Virus record (IMG/VR): IMGVR_UViG_2588253749_000003
Span: 1 to 41,222 of that record
Direction: 5' to 3' (one strand)
DNA: 41,222 nucleotides
Source of the DNA: a virus
Taxonomy: Duplodnaviria; Heunggongvirae; Uroviricota; Caudoviricetes
Shown here: positions 33,057 to 35,462 of the stretch, piece by piece
Position numbering within the stretch: the stretch's first letter is position 1
Layout of the letters: the number at the start of each line of letters is the position of its first letter
Notes under the pieces: model-generated
Databases searched by the model: none
Told to the model about the DNA's origin: nothing
The model's input: the letters and a program-made list of their open reading frames with translations, nothing else
Translations under genes and position numbers: made by a program

Positions 33057-34385
33057 ATGACGTGGAAAGACAGGCTTCAGGATGCGTCATTTCGCGGCGT
33101 ACCGTTTAAGGTTGAAGAAGAAAGTGCGGGAACCGGTCGCCGTGTGGAAACGCACGAATACCCGAACCGCGACAAACCCTATACCGAAGATCTGGGAAAA
33201 GTCACTTTCCGCCCGTCCATCACGGCTTATGTGGTGGGAGATGACTGCTTTGACCAGCGCGATCGCCTGATTGACGCGCTGAATAAACCCGGTCCCGGCA
33301 CGCTTGTCCATCCGACATACGGTGAGCTGAAAGTCTGTGTTGACGGGGAGGTTCGGGTCAGCACATCGAAGAGTGAAGGGCGTATTGTCCGCTTTGACCT
33401 GAAGTTTGTCGAAGCGGGAGAACTCTCTTACCCCACATCAGGTGCGGCGACGGCGCAGACGCTGATGTCATCCTGTTCTGCACTGGATGACTGCATCAGT
33501 GACAGTTTCAGTGGTTTCAGTGTCGATGGCGTGGCAGATTTTGTACAGAACGACGTCGTCGGTAATGCCAGCACAATGCTTGGGTATGTTTCTGATGCGA
33601 TGAAAGTGGTGGATTCTGCCGTATCGGATGCTGCCAGGCTGTTGCAGGGGGATATCTCGGTACTTCTGCCGCCACCATCGTCAGGCAAAAATTTCGTTGA
33701 GCAGGTGCAGAAAATGTGGCGTACCGGGAAACGCCTTTATGGTAACGCCAGCGACCTTGTCACCATGATCAAAACGCTTTCCGGTGTCAGCCTCGGCAGC
33801 GATCTGCAACCGCGCGGCATCTGGAAAACGGACAGTAAAACCACCGCCACGGCGACGCAGCAGCGTAACGTGGTTGCCAGCACCCTTCGTACGACCGCAA
33901 TCAGCGAAGCGGCGTATGCCGTCACCCGATTGCCTGCGCCAACAACTTCCGCGGTGATGCAGAATGCCACAGTGGGGCAGGCAACAACACCTGCGCAGAG
34001 CACTGGCTGGCCTTCCGTCACGCATCCGGCACTGAACAATGCACCGGCGGTGAAAAACACGGTTGACCTGCCAACGTGGGAAGAACTGACCGACATTCGC
34101 GACACACTGAATACGGCAATTGATAAGGAGTTGTCCCGTACAACCAGTGATGCGTTGTTTCTGGCGCTGCGCCGGGTGAAAGCAGATCTGAATGCGGATA
34201 TCAACACGCGCCTTGAACAGTCTGCACGGATCATTCAGCGCACACCGGATGAGGTTTTACCCGCGCTGGTGCTGGCGGCGACCTGGTTTGATAACGCGGC
34301 GCGTGACGAGGACATTATCCGGCGTAATGCCATTACGCATCCCGGCTTTGTGCCGGTGATCCCTCTGAAGGTGCCAGTGCAATGA
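33057..34385 (+). CDS. DNA circularization protein (Mu N-like)
   Basis: ATG 33057 with GGAG SD; N-terminus MTWKDRLQDASFRGVPF typical of Mu N family; position after TMP. Confidence 0.7.
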   Translation: MTWKDRLQDASFRGVPFKVEEESAGTGRRVETHEYPNRDKPYTEDLGKVTFRPSITAYVVGDDCFDQRDRLIDALNKPGPGTLVHPTYGELKVCVDGEVRVSTSKSEGRIVRFDLKFVEAGELSYPTSGAATAQTLMSSCSALDDCISDSFSGFSVDGVADFVQNDVVGNASTMLGYVSDAMKVVDSAVSDAARLLQGDISVLLPPPSSGKNFVEQVQKMWRTGKRLYGNASDLVTMIKTLSGVSLGSDLQPRGIWKTDSKTTATATQQRNVVASTLRTTAISEAAYAVTRLPAPTTSAVMQNATVGQATTPAQSTGWPSVTHPALNNAPAVKNTVDLPTWEELTDIRDTLNTAIDKELSRTTSDALFLALRRVKADLNADINTRLEQSARIIQRTPDEVLPALVLAATWFDNAARDEDIIRRNAITHPGFVPVIPLKVPVQ

Positions 34386-35462
34386 ACGACAATGTCACGC
34401 TACGGGTAAATGGCCGGGAGTGGAATGGCTGGACATCGGTGCGCATCGGTGCCGGTATTGAACGGCTGACACGGGATTTCAGTGTGGAGATCACCCGCCA
34501 GTGGCCGGGGGGGGGAGGGTATCACCACGCTTCAGCCGCGCATTAAAAACGGTTCAAAAGTGGAGGTGCTGATTGGTGATGAACTGGTGATCACCGGCTG
34601 GGTGGAGGCGACCCCCGTTCGTTACGATGCCCGTTCGGTCAGCACCGGTATTGCCGGACGTAGTCTGACTGCTGACCTGATTGACTGTGCAGCCGAACCG
34701 ACACAGTTTAACGGACGATCGCTGGTACAGATTGCGCAGGCGCTTGCTGCGCCCTTCGGCATTGAGGTGGTGAACAGCGGTGCGCCGTCGGGTGTTATTC
34801 CTGACGTCCAGCCCGATCATGGTGAAACGGTGATTGAGGTAATCAACAAAATACTCGGTCAGCAGCAGGCACTGGCTTACGACGACCCGCACGGCAGGCT
34901 GGTGATTGGCGGTATTGGCTCAACGCGGGCGCATACTGCGCTGGTGCTCGGGGAAAACATCCTTTCCTGCGATACGGAGAAGAGTATCCGGGAGCGGTTT
35001 TCTGTTTACCAGGTGGCGGGGCAGCGTGCCGGAAACGACGATGATTTCGGTGAGGCCACCACCACCGCGCTGAGGGCCCGCACAGAGGACGCATTTATTG
35101 CCCGTTACCGTCCGATGTATATCAGGCAGACAGGGCAGGCTACGGGGGCAGGTTGTATTGCCCGTGCTGACTTTGAAGCCCGACAACGGGCGGCGCGGAC
35201 GGATGAAACCACCTATGTGGTGCAGGGCTGGCGACAGGGTAACGGTACGCTGTGGCAGCCCAACCAGCGGGTGATTGTCTTTGATCCGGTCTGTGGTTTC
35301 GACAATACCGAACTGCTTGTCTCGGAAGTCACGTTTACTCAGGACCAGAACGGCACCCTGACGGAAATCCGTGTCGGCCCGCCTGATGCTTATCTGCCTG
35401 AACCCGAGGCTCCCGGCGCGCGGAAAAAGAAAAAAGCCAGAGTACAGGAGGACCCGTTCTGA
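34382..35462 (+). CDS. Baseplate hub protein (Mu P-like), interrupted by +1 G in a G9 homopolymer (frameshift)
   Basis: ATG 34382 frame stops at about 34520; downstream frame 34482-35462 continues; 8 instead of 9 G at 34507-34515 would give one continuous ORF. Confidence 0.6.

Follow-up and report, generated by a model that had tools for sequence, protein, structure and literature searches.

The baseplate hub gene of a prophage in the enterotoxigenic Escherichia coli (ETEC) strain B7A is split into two reading frames by a run of nine G (G9), one base longer than the run of eight (G8) found in the intact gene of its closest relatives. The DNA analyzed here (the window) comprises positions 1 to 41,222 of the IMG/VR virus record IMGVR_UViG_2588253749_000003 and is B7A sequence, corresponding to CP005998.1. 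We favor, with a probability of about 0.78, a genuine, strain-specific insertion that took the tract from G8 to G9 and inactivated the hub gene of an SfV/SfII/SfIV-like prophage with an HK97-type head and a Mu-type contractile tail. The event itself is of a known and ordinary kind, a strain-specific frameshift pseudogene, and most of what follows concerns whether the ninth G is real, how it arose, and whether the gene could still be expressed.

Read directly, positions 34500-34519 of the window are AGTGGCC GGGGGGGGG AGGG, with the nine G at 34507-34515 on the plus strand; alignments place this tract one G above the in-frame G8 of the closest relatives, strains 700481 and E203449, and it is the site of the frameshift. 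The whole frameshifted gene, of the Mu gp44/GpP family, occupies 34382-35462 on the same strand and would encode 359 amino acids (aa) if the tract were G8. Its 5' fragment (34382-34546, plus strand) runs from ATG 34382 to TAA 34546 and encodes 54 aa, beginning MNDNVTLRVNGREWNGW and ending GGGGYHHASAAH, of which the first 43 residues belong to the native frame and the final 11 (GGYHHASAAH plus stop) do not. Its 3' fragment (34482-35462, plus strand), taken mechanically as an open reading frame (ORF) from GTG 34482, encodes 326 aa, with hub homology starting just past the tract; the gene calls of CP005998.1 give 300 aa from GTG 34560. The two ORFs lie in frames one base apart, the 3' ORF one base ahead, and overlap across G9. 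When one G is removed from the tract computationally, a single ORF of 1080 nucleotides (nt) and 359 aa results, equal in length to the annotated intact homologues and differing from WP_032301265.1 of strain 700481 by A30T only. The original prediction, made from the sequence of the window, had proposed both that G9 splits the hub gene into two frames and that eight G would fuse the parts into a Mu P-like protein of about 359 aa; the sequence and its ORFs confirm the first, and the computed ORF, its Pfam domains, and its match to a Mu structure bear out the second.

The run is not exceptional as a matter of composition. G9 is the longest homopolymer of the window, and no other G or C run there exceeds six, but at least two G8 matches occurred in 34 of 100 dinucleotide shuffles, so that a G run of eight or more is unremarkable. 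The significance of the tract comes instead from comparison with relatives and from its effect on the gene.

The identity of the repaired protein is clear from several lines of evidence. It matches, in order, the Pfam domains GpP-like_1st (79.7 bits), Gp44-like_2nd (92.9 bits), and GpP_4th (66.8 bits), where the gathering cut-off for all three is 27 bits; it aligns to Mu gp44 (1WRU) with E=1.8e-50 from query residues 1-348 to chain residues 1-348, and over its whole length to the 43-kDa tail protein of MuSo2 (3CDD) with E=6.5e-52. Its gene also has the neighborhood of the family, lying within a contractile-tail module between an intact DNA-circularization gene (Mu gp43/N-like, 33015-34385, plus strand), whose stop overlaps the hub ATG (ATGA), and an intact gene for a Mu gp45-like baseplate assembly protein V (35462-36010, plus strand), whose start overlaps the hub stop; gp46-, gp47/J-, and gp48-like genes follow 3' of the gp45-like gene. 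With gene P of Mu (gp44, 1WRU) and the MuSo2 protein (3CDD) the repaired hub thus shares end-to-end alignment, domain order, and gene neighborhood. What sets the B7A locus apart is that, in place of one unbroken ORF of about 360 aa, G9 leaves ORFs of 54 and 326 aa: unlike that of Mu, the B7A hub gene is broken by a +1 frameshift in domain 1, and it belongs to an SfV-like phage with an HK97-type head that is not transposable. We conclude that the B7A hub gene is very probably a pseudogene of the Mu gp44/GpP family in this strain.

Over 1201 nt, the hub region has 97.0-97.7% nucleotide identity to SfIV, SfV, SfI, and SfII and to several E. coli phages, and the annotated gene order of the tail module is the same in SfII; we class the element as an SfV/SfII/SfIV-like prophage from the identity and synteny of its tail module. 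SfV, SfIV, SfII, SfI, and the E. coli prophage relatives share this gene order and have the hub as an intact ORF of 1080 nt, whereas G9 occurs in B7A alone. In SfII the tract was read as the in-frame, interrupted GGGAGATG, while for SfV, SfIV, and SfI in-frame interruption is inferred from match spans of 1200 nt. A close hub homologue is present in about 1100 RefSeq E. coli records, and those listed annotate one intact "phage baseplate assembly protein". The 54-aa product, looked up exactly, was found on one contig only, CP005998.1 (GCA_000725265.1), with the annotation AIF60208.1, "bacteriophage Mu P family protein [Escherichia coli B7A]"; CP005998.1 is the reference genome of E. coli B7A (PMC6459556).

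Homopolymers are classic miscall sites, and one reading of the split gene, raised in the original prediction, is that the gene is in fact intact, with G8 in B7A, and that a miscall in sequencing or assembly added the extra G. The recurrence of G9 across assemblies argues against this. The exact 326-aa product is also found on AAJT02000053.1, from a separate B7A draft (GCA_000167815.1), and in the Logan assembly of sequencing run SRR9418137; this product is possible only with the tract in this frame. Alignment agrees: both AAJT02000053.1 and the Logan SRR9418137 contig have G9 together with a B7A-specific A at 34469 that is missing in the relatives aligned, and the Logan contig shares 8319 bp with the window at 100% identity. 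Two IMG/VR contigs of one IMG genome (638341085) carry G9 as well; with one gap and 99.98-99.99% identity to the window, as in the B7A draft, they are in our view that draft itself. The AAJT draft is presumably Sanger-based and CP005998.1 SMRT-based (single-molecule real-time).

That these assemblies are not copies of each other follows from their differences at two other indel sites, which also provide examples of apparently assembly-specific single-base errors and to that extent lend the artefact explanation some plausibility. At 34118, AAJT02000053.1 is short of one A, which splits its DNA-circularization gene into ORFs of 373 and 69 aa, while the gene is intact in both the window and the Logan SRR9418137 contig, which match here; the missing A is probably an error of the draft. 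At 39094-39096, the window has AAA where the B7A draft and E203449 have AA, giving ORFs at 38487-39119 (210 aa) and 39088-39537 (149 aa) in place of a conserved 349-aa gene of the tail-fibre module. The truncated 210-aa product occurs only in CP005998.1, and the intact 349-aa protein is present in the draft and in many other genomes; a wrong consensus call in the complete assembly CP005998.1, not biology, probably accounts for the extra A. This site serves as an internal control: an indel confined to one assembly (39094) and one that recurs (G9) can be told apart by this approach. CP005998.1, AAJT02000053.1, and the Logan assembly of SRR9418137 disagree at such sites and still share G9, and the repaired B7A protein (T30 with G8) was absent from a collection of 15 billion proteins, in which the intact A30 hub protein was found on 252 contigs. 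Strain B7A very probably does carry G9, and we consider an artefact very unlikely; of the explanations first put forward for the split, a genuine inactivating mutation is the one favored by the reappearance of G9 in separately deposited and assembled data of the same strain.

Outside B7A, G9 was not found in the collections searched. A 68-nt query centered on the tract matched 1065 RefSeq complete E. coli records; none of them had G9 or reached the band of at least 99% identity, and all matches listed were one base shorter than the query, at 67 nt. In three RefSeq records the one-base gap is the sole difference, and these are G8 (read in 700481 and E203449). B7A itself is missing from the RefSeq complete-genome collection (no 100% match), for whatever reason, and this is not used as evidence. 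G9 was likewise in none of 26 phage records, and all 12 close ones span one base fewer than the query. A scan of IMG/VR with a variable tract gave, among at least 119 matches listed, 97 with GGGAGATG, 20 with GGGTGATG, one with GGGGGGTG, and one with G9, the last being B7A itself; a scan for G-rich alleles only returned B7A (G9) and GGGGGGTG from IMG/VR and one in-frame GGGGGGTG from metagenomes, and scans for the exact G9 pattern in metagenome and species-representative genome collections had no match. Hypothetical G9 or G7 frameshift peptides from the nearest relatives (A30, G3) were absent from the protein collection, a look-up that depends on gene callers reporting ORFs as short as these. 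The comparison with intact homologues that the original prediction had recommended, including the search for homologues with G9 and two ORFs that could have overturned it, thus returned none, and by the sequences in these collections the two-ORF arrangement of the hub is a singleton.

The relatives also suggest how such a tract may come about. In one alignment of the codons after CCG (the tract of E203449 was read separately), the in-frame alleles form a series: the common GGGTGATG and GGGAGATG, then GGGAGGTG, then GGGGGGTG, then G8. GGT-GAT-GAG in ATCC 11775 and GGA-GAT-GAG in SfII, both common, encode P-G-D-E and contain a G run of 3; GGA-GGT-GAG in WCHEC050613 encodes P-G-G-E, again with a run of 3; GGG-GGT-GAG in UTAK-3 and GGG-GGG-GAG in 700481 and E203449 also encode P-G-G-E, with runs of 6 and 8; and the G9 of B7A, with a run of 9, is frameshifted. 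The G8 run is the product of one Asp-to-Gly change and two synonymous changes. This stretch aligns poorly, and with a gap, to the MuSo2 homologue, which is consistent with a variable loop in hub domain 1. Point substitutions in such a loop would have lengthened the G run stepwise to G8. In E. coli, indels concentrate in long mononucleotide runs (PMC8510543), and G8, as a run of this kind prone to replication slippage, could then have gained one G in the B7A lineage. The closest relatives of B7A, at 99.8-99.9% identity over 21 kb, have G8 and an intact gene, and the simplest history we infer is a recent replication-slippage insertion from G8 to G9 in the B7A lineage.

The likely consequence is loss of the hub. 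In the 85-position profile of the first domain, the break comes at position 40/41: the 54-aa fragment covers profile positions 2-40, and the 3' ORF covers 41-85 as well as the second (Gp44-like) and fourth (GpP) domains, so neither fragment has a complete first domain. The native frame would end after residue 43, in the middle of this domain, and the remaining residues, about 315 of them, would lie in the +1 frame without a good start signal, leaving hub below normal levels. GTG 34482 and GTG 34560 have weak or no Shine-Dalgarno sequences, a GGAGG inside the tract has no in-frame start codon after it, and a start at GTG 34560 would drop about 59 residues. By the established annotation of its family, the hub is a part of the baseplate that Mu-type tails cannot do without. 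With an essential hub bisected in its first domain, the prophage is expected to be tail-defective, and the sequence suggests that G9 probably leaves it so; baseplate and tail assembly would fail, and the element would be a decaying or cryptic prophage. A literature search on B7A prophages (induction, microscopy, plaque data) found nothing usable.

It is conceivable that the gene is split and yet functional, the 54-aa peptide assembling non-covalently with a re-initiated C-terminal polypeptide, and the position of the break in a region poorly aligned and gapped relative to MuSo2 hints at a surface loop, where split proteins sometimes complement. Just past the tract, however, no canonical start codon has a Shine-Dalgarno sequence, the break interrupts the first domain at position 40 of 85, and no homologue among the phage, RefSeq E. 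coli, or IMG/VR matches is organized as two genes. We regard this as the least probable of the explanations considered, and highly improbable in itself.

Another alternative is that G9 is a functional slippery tract, through a reversible switch between G9 and G8, +1 ribosomal slippage of tRNA-Gly, or slippage of RNA polymerase, making the prophage conditionally infectious. By the logic of the sequence, a +1 slip of tRNA-Gly in GGG-GGG-G gives a product identical to the G8 protein; in the thymidine kinase of a herpesvirus, frameshifting compensates for a G-string indel at a low level, which sets a precedent (PMC5009743); and, runs of G8 and G9 being hot spots of replication slippage (PMC8510543), some reversion from G9 to G8 must occur. 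The structural module, moreover, has no other reproducible disruption relative to E203449. Nevertheless, the two-ORF arrangement is limited to one strain and not conserved, and G9 is present in all B7A data sets examined (CP005998.1, AAJT02000053.1, the two IMG/VR contigs, and SRR9418137), so that tract length does not vary within the clone as it would at a phase-variable locus. The predicted RNA fold of 34495-34600, at -33.6 kcal/mol, is close to the mean of shuffled sequences (-34.6; z=+0.30) and reveals no stimulatory structure. Across the E. coli transcriptome, 100% of homopolymer insertions are in A/T runs, G/C runs are not slippage-prone, and the one-nucleotide deletion needed to rescue G9 is rare in homopolymers (PMC5574713). 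The features that mark programmed recoding, namely conservation of the tract and of the two frames, a stimulatory RNA, and a run of at least nine A or T, are all lacking at this site. The suggestion in the original prediction of a slippage-prone tract with stochastic expression therefore finds no support: G9 is invariant, restricted to B7A, without a flanking stimulator, and made of G, runs of which are poor slippage sites (PMC5574713). A functional slippery tract of some form is unlikely, and the specific version in which G9 is a reversible "off" state, with rare G9-to-G8 slippage or about 1% +1 decoding restoring the hub in a minority of cells to a biologically meaningful extent, is more doubtful than that, if slightly less so than an artefact. 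If it were true, a prophage that seems tail-defective, in an ETEC strain used for human challenge, could stochastically release infectious particles, and the phage would encode a contingency switch within a gene essential to its virion; the finding would have wider interest only in that case.

Known frameshifting systems resemble the B7A hub locus in part. The thymidine-kinase G-string mutants of herpes simplex virus (HSV) share with it a one-G indel in a run of at least seven G in a viral gene, and show leaky ribosomal frameshifting on the G run, by which some product is regained at a low level (PMC5009743), but the HSV case involves eukaryotic translation, was drug-selected, and was shown experimentally, whereas the B7A tract is known from sequence and comes with no selection scenario. 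The frameshift of tail-assembly chaperones (the lambda G/GT type) likewise places overlapping frames in a gene of the tail module, as at the hub; these frameshifts, however, are conserved and use heptanucleotide slippery sites, while the hub G9 is an unconserved singleton. The window also has, at 30750-31168, an overlapping pair of 89-aa (Phage_TAC_7) and 60-aa genes, as called in the draft, just upstream of the tape-measure gene, in the usual place of the conserved programmed frameshift of the tail-assembly chaperone. The closest likeness to the B7A hub is found in homopolymer frameshift pseudogenes of decaying prophages, in which a one-base indel hits an essential virion gene of one strain while its neighbors are intact, as is the case here. 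From such pseudogenes B7A differs in nothing of substance, apart from the fact that the stepwise run (3, 6, 8, and 9 G) can be read from living relatives.

Several points weigh against the interpretation of G9 as a genuine and inactivating insertion. The presumed loss of function is derived from bisection of the domain only; G9 is read from assemblies and not from raw reads; the independence of the three assemblies is deduced from their separate accessions and from the differences at 34118 and 39094, not from documentation; SRR9418137 is a run without a known platform or strain label, and the literature yielded nothing usable on it; and low-level rescue by reversion or by +1 decoding on GGG-GGG-G may occur. 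The remaining 25 kb of late genes show just two other single-base indels relative to E203449, at 18911 (intergenic) and at 39094, and the hub frameshift may be the sole genuine lesion of the virion module. The first of these indels, at 18911-18917, is T7 in the window and T6 in E203449 and lies between a DUF3927 gene and the holin gene, without coding consequence.

Relative to E203449, positions 1-16180 are mosaic, with identity of 92-96% in blocks compared with 99.8% in the late region, and 10237-12033 and 14223-16181 have no counterpart there; such mosaicism of the early region is typical of modular recombination among lambdoid and SfV-like prophages. A two-gene insert at 14328-16141, between a DUF1133/Q-like gene and a DNA methylase gene (16772-17821), encodes an AAA ATPase of 426 aa with a PADLOC match to AbiLi (E=7.6e-26) and a 177-aa protein without a family match, and is a candidate for AbiL-like anti-phage defence cargo; E203449 is unaligned here and has other genes in its early region. 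At 17871-18120, upstream of the lysis genes, are three tRNA genes, Met(CAT), Arg(TCG), and Arg(TCT), the first of which is annotated as tRNA-Ile in E203449 (RefSeq), presumably with a lysidine-modified CAT anticodon. In the tail module, the gp48-like ORF at 37504-38463 encodes 319 aa, of which the Pfam Gp48 domain covers residues 13-187 only, and its C-terminal third contains repeated PLxINHxGxHFAVV-like motifs. PGAP flags the homologue of this ORF in E203449 as a partial pseudogene; several of the returned genomes nevertheless have the 319-aa version, with 349-aa, 369-aa, and tail-fibre-assembly genes after it.

For annotation, these results mean that the B7A hub should be marked as a pseudogene and that 39094 in CP005998.1 and 34118 in the draft merit re-checking. 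For the biology of the strain, they predict that B7A, widely used as an ETEC challenge strain, has an SfV-like prophage unable to form tails. More generally, the hub tract is a small example of how neutral substitutions may build up a homopolymer, here through runs of 3, 6, and 8 G, that then slips.

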